From NCBI GenBank assembly GCA_963789435.1, contig CAWBKO010000001.1, positions 174,417-238,416 on the forward strand: 64,000 nucleotides of DNA, read 5' to 3'. Positions 2,893-45,196 of this stretch are shown piece by piece (the first letter of the stretch is position 1; the number at the start of each line of letters is the position of its first letter). The notes beneath the pieces were generated by a model. It was not told the DNA's origin. It made no database searches and was given only the letters and a program-made list of their open reading frames with translations. Both the position numbers and the translations under genes were made by a program. The DNA comes from an uncultured Chloroflexia bacterium (GTDB lineage Bacteria; Chloroflexota; Limnocylindria; QHBO01).

Positions 2893-4972
2893 ATGAAGCC
2901 GACCACCCCCGACAAGATCCGGAACGTCGCTCTCATCTCCCACGGTGGCGCCGGCAAGACGAGCCTCGCTGAGGCGATGCTCTTCGACGCCGGCGCGATC
3001 TCACGCCTCGGGACCGTCGAGGCGGGCACCACCGCCCTGGACTGGGATCCCGACGAGCAGAAGCGCAACCAGAGCATCAACCTCGCCATCGGCTCGATCG
3101 AGCACGATGGGGTGCGCATCACGATCGTCGACACTCCCGGCTACGCCGACTTCCAGGCCGATGTCGTGGAGGCGCTGGCCGCCGTCGACGCCGCGATCGT
3201 GGTCATCGACGCCTCCGCCGGGGTCGAGGTCGGCACCGAGGAGGTCTGGAGGCTCGCCGACGCCCGCGGCCTCCCGCGAATGATCTTCGTCAACAAGATG
3301 GACCGCGAGAACGCGAACTACGACGCCACGCTCGATCAGCTCAAGGCGCGATTCGGTCCGAAGATCGCCCCCGTCTACCTGCCCGATCGGCTCCGCGGAG
3401 ACGTTCCGCGGCTACGTGGACGTGATCGAGGAGCACGCCAACGTCTACGAGAACGGCACGCCGAAGGAGGTACCCATCCCGGAGGAGCTCGAGGGGATCG
3501 AGCACTCGCGCCGCGACGCACTGGTCGAGGCCGCGGCCGAGGCGTCCGACGAGCTGATGGAGAAGTACCTCGAGGGCCAGGCGTTCACCGATGCCGAGAT
3601 CGAGGCCGCCCTCCACAAGGGCACGCGCGAGGGCAGCGTGGTGCCGGTCTTCGTCGGATCCGCGACGCAGAACATCGGCGTCCGCGAGCTGATCAGCATG
3701 ATCGCCAAGCACATCCCATCCCCCGCCGAGGTGGGCACCCGCACCACCGCCGACGGGAAGGAGATCTCGCCCGATCCGAACGGACCCTTCATCGCCCAGG
3801 TCTTCAAGGCCACCGCCGACCCGTTCGTCGGACGGCTGACCTACTTCCGGGTCGTCTCCGGCACGCTCAACGGGCAGGGTCACGTCTACAACGCCTCGCG
3901 CAAGGAGGAGGAGCGCATCGGCAACCTCCTCTCGGTCCAGGGCAAGGACACCGATACCCTGGCGAAGGTCGGCCCCGGCGACATCGCCGCCGTGGCAAAG
4001 CTGACCTCGACCGCTGCCGGCGACACGCTCGTCGCCGACCGGTCGGGCGCTGTCCAGCTCGCGCCGCTCGCCTTCCCGGCGCCGTCGCTGCAGGTCGCCA
4101 TCGAGCCGGAGTCGAAGGCCGATCTCGACAAGCTCGGCCAGGCGCTCCATCGGCTCGCCGAGGAGGACCCGTGCGTGCTGATCCGCCGGGAGGAAGGCAC
4201 CGGCGAGACGATCCTGACGGCCATGGGCGACGCGCACGTGGACGTCATCGTGGATCGCCTGAAGCGCAAGTTCGGCGCGGCGGTCCGAACCGAGACTCCT
4301 CGCGTCCCGTATCGCGAGACGATCCGGCAGGCGGCGCGGATCGACAACAAGTACAAGCGACAGACCGGCGGCCATGGCCAGTACGGCCACGTGGTGATCG
4401 AGTTCGAGCCGGCCGAGATGGGCACCGGGTTCCAGTTCGGCAACAAGATCGTCGGCGGCGTGGTGCCGAAGCAGTACATCCCCGCCGTCGAGAAGGGGCT
4501 GCGCGAGGCGATGGCCGAGGGTGTGCTGGCCGGCTACCCGGTCGTCGACCTGCAGGCAACGCTGGTCGACGGCTCGTACCACACGGTCGACAGCTCCGAG
4601 ATGGCGTTCAAGGTCGCGGCCAGCCAGGCGCTGAAGAAGGCCTTCGACAGCGCGTCACCGGCGCTGCTGGAGCCGATCCTCGAGGTCGACGTGGTCGTTC
4701 CCGACGAGTTCATGGGCGACGTGATGGGCCAGATCACCTCGAAGCGCGGCCACGTGCTGGGAATGGACTCGGCCGAGGGCCTGCAGCATCTCAAGGCGCA
4801 GGTCCCGCAGGCCGAGATGTTCCATTACGCCACCGAGCTGCGCTCGATCACCCAGGGCCGCGGCCGCTTCAGCTGGAAGGTCGACCACTATGCCGAGGTC
4901 CCGCACAACATCGCCGACAAGGTGGTCGCGGATGCCTCGAGCAACGGCCACGGAGCGGAGCGCGGCCACTGA
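2893..4972 (+). CDS. Elongation factor G paralog (EF-G-like GTPase). One-base insertion frameshift at ~3395
   Basis: AAGGAG RBS 6 nt before ATG. G-domain ISHGGAGKTSLAEAML, DTPGYADF and NKMDR motifs, then EF-G domains II-V (GETILTAMGDAHVDV, KRQTGGHGQYGHV...). The expected LPIGSAETFRGYVDVIE junction is restored by removing one g. Confidence 0.85.
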
Positions 4973-4979
4973 GCGCGGG

Positions 4980-5228
4980 TCAGCCCTCGCGGTACGCCCA
5001 GGGCTCGCCGGTGGAGCGCTTGCGGGCGAGCGATCGGCGGTGGACGATCCCCTCGGCGACGTAGGTGGCGACCGCCACCAGCGCGGCCACCAACGTCACC
5101 AGCCATGGCGCGATCGACCACGGATCGGACGAGCCTGCCAGCACGGTGGCGATCCAGATCAGGAGCGCGGTGAGCCCGGCGGCGGTGAATCCGCTGGCAA
5201 CGGCGCCGGTCAGGAAGGCGAGACCCAT
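4980..5228 (-). CDS. Small two-TM membrane protein. Its ATG overlaps the tyrS stop (TGATG)
   Basis: [32 protein letters not shown]...WLVTLVAALVAVATYV hydrophobic helices. High GC3. Confidence 0.4.
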   Translation of the reverse strand: MGLAFLTGAVASGFTAAGLTALLIWIATVLAGSSDPWSIAPWLVTLVAALVAVATYVAEGIVHRRSLARKRSTGEPWAYREG

Positions 5229-38979: not shown

Positions 38980-39517
38980 CTAGTTGAGCTGGCCGTTGCC
39001 GCGCGAGCAGAAGTGGCCCTGCGGATCCAGCGGTTCGCCGCAGAACGGGCAGGCAGGACGGCCGGACACCACGAGCGCCTCAGCCCGCTGTACGAAGGCG
39101 CGTGCGCTCGGGCGCGTCGATCCGGACGCGGAGGAGATCCGGACCCTCCTCGGCGTCGTCGGGCAGCTCCGCGTACTCGCCGTCATCGGTCGGCGTCTGT
39201 GCCTCGATGACCACGGCCTCCTTGCTCGCATCCCACGCAAGGGCCATCGCTCCAACCCGGAACAGCTCGACCACGGGCTCCTCGAGCGGAAGCTCGTCGG
39301 CGGCTTCGGACTGCGCGGGCGCGTCGACCGCGTCGAGCAGGTCGTCGAGCCGCTGGGCAAGCGCCACCACCTGCACCTTCTCGAGGCCCACGCTGATCAA
39401 TGCGCCGCCCTTGCGCGCCTGGAGATAGAAGGACCGATCGCCCGGCTCCCCGACCGTCCCTGCCAGGAACCGATCCGGTCCGTCGAAGATGAAGAGTCGT
39501 CGTGTCATCGGCCTCAT
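38980..39517 (-). CDS. DUF3090-family protein with a C-terminal zinc ribbon. Frameshift ~39100
   Basis: RRLFIFDGPDRFLAGTVGEPGDRSFYLQARKGGALISVGLEKVQVVALAQRL and the C-terminal CPFCGEPLDPQGHFCSRGNG. Confidence 0.75.
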
Positions 39518-39613
39518 CGTAGCGGTTGCCGACCCGGTAGAGTTTCGGTGCAGATGAGCACCATCGCGATCTGACCGATGCGACAGCGGCTCCGCCCATT
39601 CCGCGACCGCGCC

Positions 39614-40190
39614 ATGGCTCGTCGACCCGACGATGACTCGCTTCCCCTCTCGCCCCGAGCGCGCCGGATCGGGGGATGGATCGCGGCGGCGCTGCTGGTC
39701 GGCGGCATCGCGCTCGCGTTCCGGATCCTCGGCGGCAACGGCGACGGAACGGTCATCGATGCATCGCCCTCGGGCTCGACCGGATCGTCCGCGCAGAGCA
39801 TCACGTTCGGGACGGCGCTCGACCCGGCCACCGGCGAAGTGGCGGCAGACGCCCGCACCGAGCGCTTCGCCGACGGCGACACCTTCGTCTATTCGGTGAC
39901 CCCGTCGGGATCGGTTCCAGCAACGCGTCTACGTCGAGGTGGAACGGACCGACGGTGGCGCGGCCGAAGTGGTCCAGGAGCCGGTCGAGGGCCAGCCATT
40001 GCCGAATCCGACGGTCATCGCCTTCACCGTTCCGGCGTCCAACCTGCTGGACGGTCTTCGGCCCCGGCCGGTACCTGATGACCATCTACGCCGAGCCCGG
40101 CGGCAGACGCGCTCGCGGAAGGGTCGTTCGAGCTGGTCGCACCCGCGGGCAGCCCGACCGCCAGCCCTCCGGCCAACAGCCCCCCCGGCC
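39614..40190 (+). CDS. Membrane-anchored hypothetical protein, frameshifted. 3' end uncertain
   Basis: RRIGGWIAAALLVGGIALAF TM, then a Ser/Thr/Gly-rich extracytoplasmic region. Confidence 0.35.
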
Positions 40191-40318
40191 GTAGCGCCAT
40201 AGGGACAGAGAAAGGGACCGGAGACGTGCCCCATCTCCGATCCCAATTTGGCAAGCCGGCGTGCCCATCCGACTCGTCTCTGCGCAGAGTACGGTCCCCC
40301 AACCGCACCTGTCAACAC

Positions 40319-41618
40319 TCAATTGACCGATAGCGCCTCGCTGGTGAGCTCATAGGCTCCTCGGTGGTCGCCCGCATCGGCCCGCAGATCGGCCCACTCG
40401 CGGAGGACCTCGCGAAGGCGGAGCGGAACGCGACTCGAACGGGCAAGCGTCGCCGCATCGGCGAATCGCTGCTCTGCTGCCGGCAGCTGGCCGTCGGCGC
40501 GCAGTGCGCGCGCTTCGGTGAGCATGGCAGCCAGGCTGGCGAGCTCGTTGCCGCTGCGTGTGGCGTAGCCACGCGCGTCGGCCGCGAGGCGCAGCGCACC
40601 GGCCGTGTCACCGGCCGCCAGCGCGACCTGGGCCTCGGTATCGGCGACCGCTGCCATCCAGCGTTCGTCTCCGGTGCTCTCGATCTGGGCGCGTGCCTCG
40701 CTCGCGAGCTCTCGGGCACGATCGATCTGGCCGACCGCCAGGTAGGCGAGCGCAAGGTCGTTCTCGATGCGTGCCGACTCGAAGATCGCCCCGGCGGCGC
40801 GGTAGAGGGCCATGCCCTGTGTTCCTGCACGAATGGCAGCCTCGAAGTCGCCGACCTCTCGGTAGCCGATCGCGAGATTGAACAGGAATGCGGCGCGGCG
40901 CCGGTCGTCCAGGTCGGCCGCCAGCCCGCGGGCCTCCTCGAGATAGGCGAGCGCGCGGGGAGCCTGGCCGGCGCGTGACTCCACGGCCGCCAGCGAGGTG
41001 AGCAGGCGCATCTCGAAGTCGGGCTCAACGTGCAGCCCGCCGCGGACCTGTTCGAGCAGTGCGTTCAGCAGGCTGCGCGCGTCTGGCTCGTTGTCCGACT
41101 GGTAGAGGCCGTAGGCGAGCCAGTAGCGTGCGAGCGCGGCATCTCCATCGCGGGAGGCCAGCCCGTAGATGCGCGCGGCCTCCGACGCGGCGGCGATCGT
41201 CTCCTTGCCGCGATCGAGGCGGGCGAGCGCCTCGGCGAGGCCACGCAGCAGATCGGCGCGTGATGCCTCGTCCGGCGAGTCCGCGAGCAGGGCGCTGATA
41301 TCCGTCGGCCGCCACCTGCCACTCGCCGGCGGCGAGCTGCATGTCGACCTCGAGGCGCGTCCACGCCGGATGGGCCTCGTCGATGAAGTGGCTGGCCGGC
41401 AGGTTGAGCCGCTCGGCGATGTGGTTGAGGGCGACCATCGACGGTCGCGCGATGCCCGTCTCGAGGGCGCTGACGTACGCCTTGGTGTAGCGATCACCGG
41501 CGACCTGCTGCTGGGTGAGCCCGGCACGGTGGCGGGCCTCGCGAATCCGCTGACCGATGCGATGCGCGAGCTCGCGGTCGCTCTCGGTGGCTCGGGCGGT
41601 CGTCTTCGTCCTCGGCAT
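40319..41618 (-). CDS. XRE-family HTH plus tetratricopeptide-repeat (TPR) regulator (Rgg/RNPP-like architecture). Frameshift ~41300
   Basis: HTH ELAHRIGQRIREARHRAGLTQQQVAGDRYTKAYVSALETGIARPSMVALNHIAERL, followed by about 300 aa of degenerate TPR-like helical repeats (AYLEEARGLAADL...ALAYLAVGQIDRARELA...). Confidence 0.8.
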
Positions 41619-41797
41619 GGCGAGCAGTCTACACCCGGTTGGCAAGCCTCATTTGACCGGAGACTGACCCGATCGTACTGCCCGAATCACTTCAACCGGG
41701 ACCGTCGGGTCATTGTCCGTCGCCGTGCCCGGCGCGACGGTGCCAGAGCGCAACTCCCCGGTGGACGGGGTGGGCGTTTCCAGTCAAGGAGAGTCAG

Positions 41798-41923
41798 ATG
41801 CGTTCGAAGCGAATCCTGCGCTCCCTCGTGGTCGCCGGCACGGCAGCGGCGCTGAGCATCCTCAGCATCGTCTCGACCGTCATGGCCGTCACGGGCGGCG
41901 GCGATTTCCCCCGCGTCCGCTAG
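41798..41923 (+). CDS. 41-aa pre-peptide with a signal-peptide-like N-terminus, divergent from the XRE-TPR regulator. Candidate secreted signalling pro-peptide
   Basis: Canonical AAGGAG RBS 6 nt before ATG. MRSKRILRSLVVAGTAAALSILSIVSTVMAVTGGGDFPRVR. 36 of 41 codons end in G/C. Not in the ORF track because it is under 60 aa. Confidence 0.45.
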   Translation: MRSKRILRSLVVAGTAAALSILSIVSTVMAVTGGGDFPRVR

Positions 41924-41984
41924 GCGAAGCACCCGCCCGGACGTTCCGTCCGGGCCTTGAGCGATCGGCCCTTGATTCCGGCGG

Positions 41985-42573
41985 CTAGTGCCCGTGCTGG
42001 TAGTAGGGGTTCGCGCCTGCCTCGTGGTCGGTGACGTCGACGATCGCCTGGATCGCCGGTACCGCGGCGCGGATGGCCGTCTCCACGCCCTGCTTCAGGG
42101 TCACGTCCACGGCGGCGCAGCCCTGGCAGCCACCGCCGAACCGCATGAACGCGGTCCCGTCCTTCACCTCGACCAGCGTCACCTGCCCGCCGTGTGAGCC
42201 GACGCCCGGGTTGATCTGCCGATCGATGACCTCCTGGACGGCGCGCGCCACGGGGTCCTGCCAGCCCTCGTTCGGGTTGGCGATGCGCAGCCCGCCGCCG
42301 GTGACCGCTGGATCGAGCTCGATCGTTGCGCCCGCAAGATCGGTGGCCGTCGCGCGGATCGAGCACGACCGTCAGGCCGTCCGACTCGACCGCCAGGTCG
42401 TCGGCCGCGCGCTCACGCGGATCCTCGAGCGCGATCTCGTACCGGAACCGCGGCCCGTCCTTGGCGAGGATGCGGACGCGCAGGACCGCTTCGGGGAATT
42501 CGTTGAAGGTGCGGACGCCGTCGATCTTGGTGCGGGCGTCCGGGCTGATGGTGAGCAGCTGATCGATCATCAC
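41985..42573 (-). CDS. NifU/Nfu-family Fe-S cluster scaffold protein. Frameshift ~42340
   Basis: C-terminal Nfu domain VQEVIDRQINPGVGSHGGQVTLVEVKDGTAFMRFGGGCQGCAAVDVTLKQGVETAI. Confidence 0.7.
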
Positions 42574-42642: not shown

Positions 42643-45196
42643 TCACCGATCTCGGCGACGCGCGCGGGGGCCTCGCGGATGGTCCATCGGTCCGGGCGCA
42701 GCGCGGCGTCCTCGAGCTCGTCCCAGCCGATCGGCATGCTCACCGGGGCACCCGGCGGCCGGCCGAGGGCTGTACGGCGCGACGAGCGTCTTGTTGATCG
42801 CGTTCTGCGTGTAGTCGAGCCGAGCCTTGCCCCTGCGCGCCCGCTTCGCCCACTCCCAGCTCACCAGGTCGGGCACCGTCGCGCCAACGGCGCGCGAGAG
42901 TCCCTCGACCCAGGCGCTCGTGTCGGCGAAGGAGGGACCGGGGCGGATGCGGATCCAGACCTGGATCCCCCGCTTGCCGGTCACCTTCGGATATCCGCGC
43001 ACGCCGAGGTGGCTCAGCGCCGTCCGGAACAGGCGCGCCAGCGCCACGACCTCGTCCCAGGTCGTGTCCGGCCCGGGGTCGATGTCGATCAGTGCGTACG
43101 ACGGCCGATCCGGGCGCCTCGGTCGGCGAGGTCCACGGGTGGAGCTCGATGGCCGCCTCCTGCGCGAGCCAGATCAGGGTCGCCGGCTCGTCGACCACCG
43201 GGTAGTCCTTCGGCCCCTCCTCGCGGTGGTGGTAGGTCCAGCGCTTGACCCACGCCGGCGCGTGCTTCGGCAGGTCCTTCTGCCAGAACCCCTTCTGCCT
43301 CGATCGCCGTTCGGGAAGCGCTGCACCGTGAGGCCGCGGTCGCGGAGATACGGCACCAGCGTGGGCCCGATGGCGAGGTGGTAGCGGAACAGGTCGCGCT
43401 TGGTGACCGCGGCGCCTCCGTCGCGGCCCGGGAAGAGCACCTTGTCGAGGTTGGTGACGCGAACCTCGCGGCCGGCCACCTGCCAGATGCCCTCCCGCTC
43501 CATGGCCTCGAGCGCCGCGGCGGCGTCATCGGTCTGCATCGGCGCATTGTGGACCTCGCGCTCGGCGGCGGCAGTGGCGGTCGCCGCGTCGACCTCGCGC
43601 TCGCGCCGGACCGATGTCGGCGCCTTGCCGATCTCGAGGCCCTTGAAGGCGGCCTGGCGCAGCAGGTCGTCCGCCGTCCAGTCGGCGAACTCGACCCGGA
43701 TGACGAGCTTCGGCTCGACCCAGTGCGCGCCCTTCAGCCTCGGCACCGGATCCAGGACCGATGTGTCGCGCGCCAGCTCATCGAGCGTGGCGCGCAGCTC
43801 GCGGCGGGTCCGCGTGTCGATCCCGCTGCCCACCTGTCCGGCGTGCACCCATCGATCGCCGGACTGCGCACCGCCACGATGAGCGAGCCGAGGTCGCGAT
43901 GGGTCCCCTGCCCCTCGAGCCACCCGACCACGACCACCTCCTGCTCGCGGCGCAGCTTGACCTTGAGCCAGCTGCGAGACCGGCGGCCGGGCTCGTACGG
44001 CGAGCGGCGCAGCTTGGCCACGATGCCCTCCAGCTCCTGGGCGCGCGCCGCCTCGGTGAACGCCAGGCCGTCGCCGACGACGTGGCTGGCGTACCCAACG
44101 CGCGGATGCGGGCGCAGGCGCGAGCGCAGCAGCCGCTTCCGCTCCTCGAGCGGCACGAGCAGCAGCGAGCGACCGTCGAGATGGAGCAGGTCGAAGGCCT
44201 GGTAGACGACCGGCGCCGGCTGACCGGGCGCCTTCGACCCCGGAACGCGGCCGGTGCGGATGCCCGTCCGGTCCTGCAGCAGGCTGAAGCTCGGGCGCCC
44301 CTCGGCGTCGAGCGCCACCACCTCGCCGTCGACGATCGCCTCGCGCGCGTCGATCCACGGAGCCTCGCCCGGCGAGCTCGGGGAAGTAGCGCGACGCGTC
44401 CAGCTGGTTGCGGGTCCAGATCCGGGCGCGACCGTCACGCACGACTGCCTCGACCCGGTAGCCGTCCCACTTGACCTCGAAGAGCCAGTCGGGGTCGTCG
44501 AAGGCGGCGTCCGCCAGGGTCGCCTTCATCGGCGGGATGAAGTCGGGCATCGGCGCCTCGCGCGCCGCCGACAGGTCGATCTCCCCCACCGGGCGCGGCG
44601 GCTGCGCCTCGAAGCGCGGCGGCACCCCATCTCGCACCTCGTCGTTGGTGCGGCCGGTCTTCACGCTGCGAGGGTGATCCTCGGCGTCCCAGCCGGCGAC
44701 CGCGTCTGCGTCGCGCTTGTGGAGGAGGAGCCATCGCTCGCGCTCGTCGTCTCGGCCGCCGCGGTTGTCGGTGCGGATGATCGTGAAGCGTCCGCGCAGC
44801 TTCTCGCCATGCAGCACGAACTTGATCTCGCCCGTGCGCAGGGCGGCCGACGGATCCGGCGTCTCGGCCTCGGGCTCGTACGTGCCCCAGTCCCAGACGA
44901 TGACGTCGCCCGCCCCGTATTGGGCCGTCGGGATGACTCCCTCGAAGTCGAAGTACTCGATCGGGTGGTCCTCGGTGCGCATCGCCAGCCGGCGGGCCGA
45001 CGGGTCGAGCGTCGGGCCCTTCGGCACGGCCCAGCTCACGAGCACGCCGCCGATCTCGAGGCGCACGTCGTAGTGCAACGCGGTCGCGCGATGGCGCTGG
45101 ATCGGTGAACCGGCCGCTGCGCTCGACCAGCTCGCCGGGCGCCGGCTCCGGCGTGGCTCCGAAGTCGCGCTTGCGCCGATACTCCTCGAGCGGCAT
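42643..45196 (-). CDS. ligD: Multidomain ATP-dependent DNA ligase LigD (order: phosphoesterase, ligase, polymerase). Many frameshifts
   Basis: PE domain MPLEEYRRKRDFGATPEP...HYDVRLEIGGVLVSWAVPKGP, ligase PMKATLADAAFDDPDWLFEVKWDGYR, Pol domain YPKVTGKRGIQVWIRI...RLDYTQNAINKTLVAPYS. Confidence 0.85.

Follow-up and report, generated by a model that had tools for sequence, protein, structure and literature searches.

A short part of a 64,000-nucleotide (nt) stretch of DNA from an uncultured Chloroflexia bacterium (contig CAWBKO010000001.1; the whole stretch is referred to as the window) holds two genes that are transcribed away from each other. The larger encodes a regulator with an XRE-type helix-turn-helix (HTH) followed by tetratricopeptide repeats (TPR). 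The smaller is an open reading frame (ORF) of 41 amino acids (aa) whose product is predicted to begin with a Sec signal peptide and to end in a glycine-rich tail. From the start of the small ORF to the ATG of the regulator (41618) there are 179 nt; the original prediction, made from the sequence of the window, had the divergent orientation right and gave the gap as 180 bp. The pair was compared with 80 related genomic loci (L-numbered where one has to be named), of which ~74 are informative for the small ORF. Taken together, the comparisons suggest a two-gene cassette in which the small gene may supply a peptide ligand for the regulator.

Conservation of the small gene with its regulator

The small ORF was found divergently upstream of HTH-TPR regulator orthologues in at least 64 of the ~74 informative loci. 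By tblastn almost all loci with enough upstream DNA have the peptide ~165–195 nt ahead of the regulator and in divergent orientation, and an automatic scan recovered an ATG-started ORF of 38–43 aa, with GGAG 6–10 nt before the ATG, in 64 loci (65 sequences with the window). The substitutions have the pattern expected of codons. Pairs of sequences differ on average by 0.25, 0.18 and 0.39 per site at the first, second and third codon positions, and the Nei-Gojobori ratio of nonsynonymous to synonymous proportions (pN/pS) is 0.54 over the whole ORF and 0.46 over its final eight codons, which encode the tail. Residues A13, A17, G34 and P38 are invariant, each by way of four different codons. Judged from these substitution patterns, the 41-aa ORF is a real, selected gene. 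In the window 37 of its 41 codons end in G or C (GC of 63, 56 and 90% at codon positions 1, 2 and 3), so that the high bias reported earlier stands with its count raised by one from 36. The Shine-Dalgarno sequence AAGGAG and its 6-nt spacing to the ATG were likewise described correctly; this is one of three AAGGAG-N4-9-ATG sites in the whole window. The exact peptide of the window is present in public catalogues, where it is annotated just as 'hypothetical protein'.

The neighbouring genes of the loci were compared by protein queries. Among regulators of at least 64% identity the context is common and runs LigD, (Nfu), small ORF, regulator, (membrane protein), DUF3090, phosphatase, the genes in brackets being optional; synteny alone could therefore account for the co-occurrence there. 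In L071–L080, where the regulator is 47–50% identical and none of the flanking genes is held in common, a divergent signal-peptide ORF is still present and ends in GGGGVWP, GGGPSYP or GPGPWP. Two loci from metagenomes (L086 and L087), with regulators that are 42–44% identical, carry ORFs ending in ...ADTSPGPWPR and ...ADNIPGQFP. By this comparison of gene order, the conserved entity is a two-gene unit that is kept where the flanking genes all differ. The co-conservation on which the original prediction had been staked is thus strong, also in relatives with entirely different neighbours, and nothing that had been named beforehand as refuting that interpretation was found outright.

The anatomy of the peptide may be considered from residue statistics over 58 sequences. 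The n-region has a mean net charge of +3.4 and is followed by an uncharged stretch of 21–32 residues. V28 (position -3) is present in 57 of the 58 sequences, and position 30 (-1) is A in 54 and G in the other four, which is what cleavage by signal peptidase I after residue 30 predicts. The product is thus predicted to carry a Sec signal that signal peptidase I would cut. The classical layout described earlier for the window (n-region charge, h-region, -3/-1 residues) therefore extends to the family as judged by rules only, by which the long h-region might also be a membrane anchor. Conservation is concentrated in the signal peptide, at the V-x-A site and in a glycine-rich C-terminal tail that closes with [F/W/Y]-P. 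Tails in other clades read SNGNGFP, TNGNGWP, TTGGGFP, GGGxx[WY]P or GPGPWP, and the type of tail tracks the phylogeny of the regulator.

Three other export routes were considered for the peptide and set aside. Twin-arginine (Tat) export requires a motif that is not conserved, position 4 being K, R, S, Q or T. A double-glycine leader is set aside since what precedes the GG is hydrophobic rather than an amphipathic leader, and a lipoprotein processed by signal peptidase II is out because the window peptide has no Cys and a Cys at +1 occurs in only 7 of the 58 sequences.

Six loci (L055, L056, L058, L060, L062 and L066) have only a 12-codon ORF with no signal peptide. These ORFs lie ~170–215 nt upstream of the regulator start on the opposite strand, behind the same promoter blocks and Shine-Dalgarno site, and share the consensus M-R-x-x-x-[TN]-G-[GS]-G-[WF]-P-x; their sequences are MRSCSTGGGWPF, MRSCSTGGGWPL, MRQVTNGSGFPQ, MRSAHTGGGWPS, VQHVTNGSGFPA and MRRVTNGSGWPL. 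A neighbour-joining tree of the regulators placed five of the six tail-only loci, in at least two separate positions and each beside long-form relatives, so the signal peptide was lost more than once with the tail retained. These reading frames point to the C-terminal octapeptide tail as the functional entity, and their persistence shows the predicted Sec export to be dispensable in some lineages. Retention of the tail with no signal peptide also makes it less likely that the peptide serves as a membrane anchor or as a secreted effector in its own right. A precedent among RRNPP receptors is RopB, whose leaderless communication peptides (LCP) have no Sec leader and are yet secreted and re-imported (PMC10518010).

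Nearly all of the 80 loci come from metagenome-assembled genomes (MAGs) of Chloroflexota, class Candidatus (Ca.) Limnocylindria, with a few under other bin names. This places the host in that class and not among high-GC actinobacteria, which corrects the lineage suggested earlier. To our knowledge the Ca. Limnocylindria lineage has no cultured representatives. When 1.84 billion cluster representatives were searched exhaustively with HMMER, only 120 clusters of the regulator family were returned at E <= 1e-30, from which the family is seen to be compact and restricted to its lineage; ~45 of these clusters are full-length at 40–57% identity, and below that only generic TPR proteins were found. 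Eight loci (L005, L007, L027, L039, L042, L053, L057 and L060) are binned as Steroidobacteraceae, Ca. Angelobacter, Ca. Binatia or Gemmatimonadota. As these contigs carry a syntenic locus of the Limnocylindria type, the MAGs are probably mis-binned or mislabelled.

Table 1. Features of the two-gene locus and its control region, in window coordinates
Feature	Position	Strand	Remarks
HTH(XRE)-TPR regulator gene	40319-41618	-	split by a +1 frameshift; intact orthologues 432 aa (>1200 homologues)
Extra base causing the frameshift	~41294		TATCAGCGCC in the window, TATCGG-GCC in L001 and L002
TAGACT, -10-like	41626-41631	-	7 nt upstream of the regulator ATG, no Shine-Dalgarno; CAGTCTAC block conserved, TACACT in other clades
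TTGGCAAGCCTCATTTGACC, most conserved intergenic block	41639-41658	+	TTGGCAAGC-N-TCA-N-TTGACC; in all clades including the 12-aa clade
GTACTGCCC block	41675-41683	+	conserved GTAC(T/C); spacing to TTGACC conserved, spacer sequence not
CCGGGACCGTCGGGTCATTGTCCG block (CCGGGACCG-N-CGGGTCATTGTCC)	41696-41719	+	near-palindromic core GACCG-N2-GGGTC; single exact copy in the window
CGGCGCGACGGTG block	41730-41742	+	conserved; holds the reverse complement of the ACCGTCG half-site
GACCGTCGGGTC	within intergenic 41619-41797		named as a box beside TTGGCAAGC-N-TCA-N-TTGACC
Shine-Dalgarno AAGGAG	41786-41791	+	6 nt ahead of the small-ORF ATG
41-aa small ORF	41798-41923	+	product MRSKRILRSLVVAGTAAALSILSIVSTVMAVTGGGDFPRVR
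Predicted Sec signal peptide, codons 1-30	41798-41887	+	basic n-region, hydrophobic h-region, V-M-A at -3 to -1
Predicted mature peptide VTGGGDFPRVR and stop codon	41888-41923	+	core x-[TS]-G-G-[GA]-D-[FW]-P; variable basic tail of 0-5 residues
GC-rich hairpin GCCCGGACG-TTC-CGTCCGGGC	41935-41955	+	3' of the small-ORF stop; likely terminator before the convergent nfu-like gene

The regulator, its fold and its neighbours

The order of domains proposed for the regulator, an XRE-type HTH and then TPRs, is borne out by Pfam, which finds HTH_31 (residues 21–75, 3.7e-9) followed by TPR_12 (3.6e-13); homologues are flagged with PF17874 TPR_MalT. The AlphaFold (AF2) model has a predicted local distance difference test score (pLDDT) of 84 and a predicted template modelling score (pTM) of 0.73 and presents the HTH and ~19 further helices, arranged as about nine TPR-like pairs. 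The invariant and near-invariant columns of the family are found mostly in the HTH region, which fits an operator that is common to the family.

A search of the model against the PDB with Foldseek placed LGN/Pins first and RapF at rank 42. Rap, NprR and PlcR were all among the top structural matches with scores no better than those of unrelated TPR proteins. A profile built from diverse members of the family matched RapH (4e-11), RapJ (3e-8), NprR (3e-7) and a plasmid Rap, and bacterial kinesin-light-chain-like and designed TPR proteins scored as well in the same search. In a sequence search of the PDB, PlcR was matched through its HTH only. Going by the model, the TPR domain is a generic superhelix that would be compatible with an RRNPP receptor and is not diagnostic of one; the resemblance to RNPP/Rgg repeats on which the original prediction leaned appears among the best matches and is equalled by unrelated proteins. 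Another neighbour in the fold search was APPBP2 (PDB 8jal), a TPR protein whose target is a C-terminal degron, R-x-x-G-P. The peptides of several clades end exactly at G-x-[FWY]-P; the parallel to the degron is superficial.

The regulator had been described as a single ORF of 433 aa. This does not hold, since the span of 1300 nt is not a multiple of three and the HTH and TPR parts lie in different frames, separated by the one extra base near 41294. The window shares 94% identity with its nearest relative (L001), from which 23 gaps in 5.4 kb set it apart. Neighbouring genes between 38980 and 45196 are also split across frames, namely the DUF3090-like gene (39080–39517 and 38980–39360), the Nfu-like gene (41985–42251 and on up to 42573) and the LigD gene (43174–45196, with its core in another frame at 43734–44438). 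Because of the 23 gaps and the split neighbours, the frameshift in the regulator is probably an indel error of assembly, a true pseudogene being conceivable. The region as a whole looks like an indel-prone long-read assembly rather than one of gene decay. In L071 (3878–5561), as in L072 and L075, the regulators are ~520 aa long with an apparent second XRE-type HTH before the usual one; the two regulator parts of L071 are in different frames, which may be an assembly error.

A gene for a membrane-anchored protein (39578–40210, plus strand) runs convergently towards the 3' end of the regulator gene. It is frameshifted in the window, is found in 43 related loci and is absent from more distant ones. 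On the other side, the gene that follows the small ORF is convergent in the window and lies on the strand opposite to the small ORF in the main-clade loci.

The control region between the two genes

Several blocks between the genes surpass much of the coding sequence in conservation. Since the reading frame is not conserved across them, the blocks would act as DNA or RNA elements. Nearest to the regulator, the -10-like TAGACT and its distance from the ATG suggest that the regulator mRNA may be leaderless. The block at 41639–41658 holds an imperfect inverted repeat (GGCAAG / CTTGAC) and a TTGACC hexamer that precedes a conserved TAC by 17 nt; the block is found nowhere else in the window (0 expected) and is a candidate operator overlapping the -35 of the promoter for the peptide gene. 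An imperfect palindrome had been proposed here as operator. No other intergenic block is as well conserved as its core; conservation does not extend to its outer CCGG arms. The block at 41675–41683 is possibly the -10 region of the same promoter. The third block (41696–41719), whose core is a perfect ACCGATCGGT in some clades, is a candidate for a second operator or for an element of the 5' untranslated region (UTR).

Further copies of the operator-like boxes (the two longest blocks) do not occur in the window beyond chance. A scan of 41500–42050 for consensus sigma-70 promoters and terminators returned nothing, so that the promoter assignments derive from conservation and spacing only. An Rfam search of 41400–42100 gave sub-threshold noise only, and RNAalifold found no consensus structure in the 5' UTR. 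At 41743–41785 and its equivalents each locus can form a stable GC hairpin of differing sequence (CCCCG...CGGGG, GCGGCC...GGCCGC). A hairpin before the Shine-Dalgarno sequence may be a conserved structure of the 5' UTR, the sign being weak at 70% GC. The hairpin beyond the small-ORF stop codon is found in the same place in nearly all loci with a sequence that varies by locus, and marks the small gene as a monocistronic unit.

A peptide-receptor reading and its alternatives

By a slight balance of probability, the pair is a peptide-receptor cassette that works like an RRNPP system of the NprR-NprX or Rgg-SHP kind. In the mechanism proposed, the small gene would be expressed from its own promoter within the 179-nt divergent region, by way of its strong Shine-Dalgarno sequence and up to its own hairpin terminator. 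The 41-aa product would be exported by Sec and cut after V-M-A (residue 30) to release VTGGGDFP(RVR), a peptide of 8–11 residues in which the determinant would be the Gly-rich stretch ending in aromatic-Pro and from which the basic tail is possibly trimmed. The peptide would re-enter the cell, or would never leave it in the case of the 12-codon variants, and would bind the cytoplasmic HTH-TPR regulator on the concave side of its TPR superhelix. Binding would alter the occupancy of the conserved intergenic boxes by the regulator, giving an autoregulatory loop with possible effects on distant targets. Export, the cleavage site, re-import, binding of the peptide to the TPRs, the DNA targets and a dependence on cell density are all steps that we infer.

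A published operational signature of RRNPP systems has five criteria (PMC10075063). For a pro-peptide of 10–100 aa, the window has 41 aa, the orthologues 38–43 aa and the six tail-only loci 12 aa. For a receptor of 250–500 aa, the intact orthologues have 432 aa, with TPRs at the C-terminus and an HTH at the N-terminus. Receptor and pro-peptide genes are neighbours, 179 nt apart, and are kept so in at least 64 loci and in unrelated contexts. With the Sec signal judged by rules only, a fit of the cassette to the five-point signature is supported. As for the Rgg/RNPP-like character claimed for the cassette in the original prediction, the architecture and this signature uphold it and the lack of any family-specific model match does not.

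Among known systems, NprR is built of an N-terminal XRE-type HTH and then about nine TPRs in ~420–430 aa. The regulator described here, with 432 aa and ~19 helices, has the same plan, and like NprR-NprX of the Bacillus cereus group it has an adjacent small gene for a Sec-type signal and an active C-terminal oligopeptide, both the signal and the active part being predicted in the present case. It differs in that its sequence relationship to NprR is only that of TPRs in general, in having divergent and not co-directional genes, in a peptide family that is Gly-rich and ends in aromatic-Pro, and in its Chloroflexota host. The Rgg-SHP and RopB-LCP (SIP) systems share with the cassette a control region that lies between an HTH-repeat regulator and a short peptide gene transcribed away from it, and the peptides of RopB that lack a Sec leader are comparable to the 12-codon ORFs (PMC10518010). 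In contrast, Rgg receptors, with their roughly five TPR-like repeats, match TIGR01716, which the present regulator does not, and the SHP and LCP peptides are hydrophobic whereas the tail here is Gly-rich and polar.

Rap-Phr systems, including the Rap of phage phi105, use, as is predicted for the cassette, a secreted pro-peptide with the active part at its C-terminus, and RapH is matched by the family profile at 4e-11, as given above. Unlike the present regulator, Rap has no HTH and acts on response regulators, phr lies downstream in the same operon, and Rap is often found on mobile elements whereas the cassette is chromosomal and syntenic. The scaffolds of MalT domain III and TPR_12 (LGN/Pins, kinesin light chain) score as well as or better than the RRNPP matches on structure and profile. 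None of these combines an HTH with an adjacent secreted-peptide gene, and MalT senses maltotriose and ATP.

Several observations weigh against the peptide-receptor reading. No Rgg (TIGR01716), ComR_TPR or RNPP-specific model was among the Pfam and NCBIfam matches of the regulator at E <= 1. Neither an oligopeptide permease (Opp) nor a protease for processing is linked to the cassette, and none of the loci has a linked transporter, the window not having been screened for Opp. Receptor columns that co-vary with the F/W/Y of the peptide, sought over 13 independent contrasts at 17–52% divergence, were hypervariable positions only. The cassette is single-copy, syntenic and chromosomal, and a scan of viral contigs found no relatives of it, all of which is unlike the mobile, multi-copy habit of many RRNPP systems. 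That the signal peptide was lost repeatedly is evidence against cell-to-cell signalling as an obligatory role. TPR sensors of the MalT type bind small molecules, so the ligand of the regulator need not be a peptide.

The last of these points belongs to the main alternative, in which the regulator and a local target are all there is: the peptide would be its own effector (an antimicrobial, an envelope factor or a micro-protein that is secreted or sits in the membrane) and the TPRs would sense a small molecule or a partner protein. The conserved operator-like boxes between the genes suffice for such a pair, and the missing transporter or protease and the missing co-variation are as it would have them. 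However, a secreted or membrane effector should not outlast the loss of its signal peptide, and yet at least two lineages retain tail-only ORFs; eight Gly-rich residues are moreover improbable as an effector standing alone, the two genes remain paired where all other neighbours have changed, and tail type follows receptor clade. The tail-only variants in particular weigh against this alternative, which is judged unlikely. Those same variants, having arisen independently in a single-copy locus of the core genome, would suit a private feedback inside the cell, where the peptide binds the regulator and export of the long forms does no more than dispose of the signal or delay it. Yet most lineages keep a full signal peptide with its -3 and -1 residues under selection, and the leaderless RopB peptides are still secreted and re-imported (PMC10518010), which leaves purely private feedback quite improbable.

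That the small ORF might encode the precursor of a ribosomally synthesised and post-translationally modified peptide (RiPP) or of a lipopeptide, with its N-terminal region as leader or lipoprotein signal, is brought to mind by the short conserved C-terminal core and by a few orthologues in which a Cys at +1 stands lipobox-like behind V-A-A or V-M-A. Cys is missing from most orthologues, that of the window included; the 12-aa forms are leaderless; and no conserved modifying enzyme is nearby, the neighbours being LigD, Nfu-like, membrane protein, DUF3090 and phosphatase genes that are all replaced in distant loci. A precursor of this sort is therefore very improbable. A chance frame, or a cis-acting leader (attenuator) peptide, is hardly to be believed. 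Random ORFs are common in DNA of 71% GC, some orthologues end in Pro-stop (a poor context for termination) and a hairpin follows the ORF, but against these stand the codon-type substitutions, the invariant residues spelled by four codons each, the conserved Shine-Dalgarno site, the absence of a same-orientation gene downstream and the fact that the ORF was already called in public catalogues.

If the peptide-receptor reading is right, its place in the literature would be unusual. In the literature searched, RRNPPA systems are described only in Bacillota (PMC10075063, PMC12700828), and the cassette falls outside that distribution. A wider claim is that this would be the first RRNPP-type communication outside Bacillota, a single-copy, vertically inherited core feature of the soil class Ca. 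Limnocylindria with a new Gly-rich, aromatic-Pro peptide code in which secretion has been repeatedly short-circuited; such a claim is tentative, plausible and somewhat short of probable. A class-wide cassette of an HTH, nine TPRs and a pro-peptide in Chloroflexota would widen the known range of peptide signalling by TPR receptors. According to the authors of the structural phylogeny, the choice between a nine-TPR and a five-TPR ancestor requires an outgroup to RRNPPA, and a receptor with an HTH and nine TPRs could be the outgroup that specialists want for rooting the family. The independent losses of the signal peptide would be a natural experiment on how secreted signals turn private. The system would also be simple to test, with a synthetic 8–11-mer, one purified regulator and 179 bp of DNA.

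A more distant HTH-TPR relative (L081, 30% identical) is flanked by two tandem ORFs for secreted pro-peptides of 46–49 aa that belong to a different family, an arrangement that counts in favour of the peptide-receptor reading. These paralogous ORFs (4396–4545 and 4834–4983, minus strand; also L082, 2058–2198) have clear signal peptides and distinct C-terminal ends, ...AEVIIGLPGGG and ...AEVIIDPPGYG, and are adjoined by a gene for an extracytoplasmic function (ECF) sigma factor. Together with their regulator they possibly form a second peptide-receptor family.

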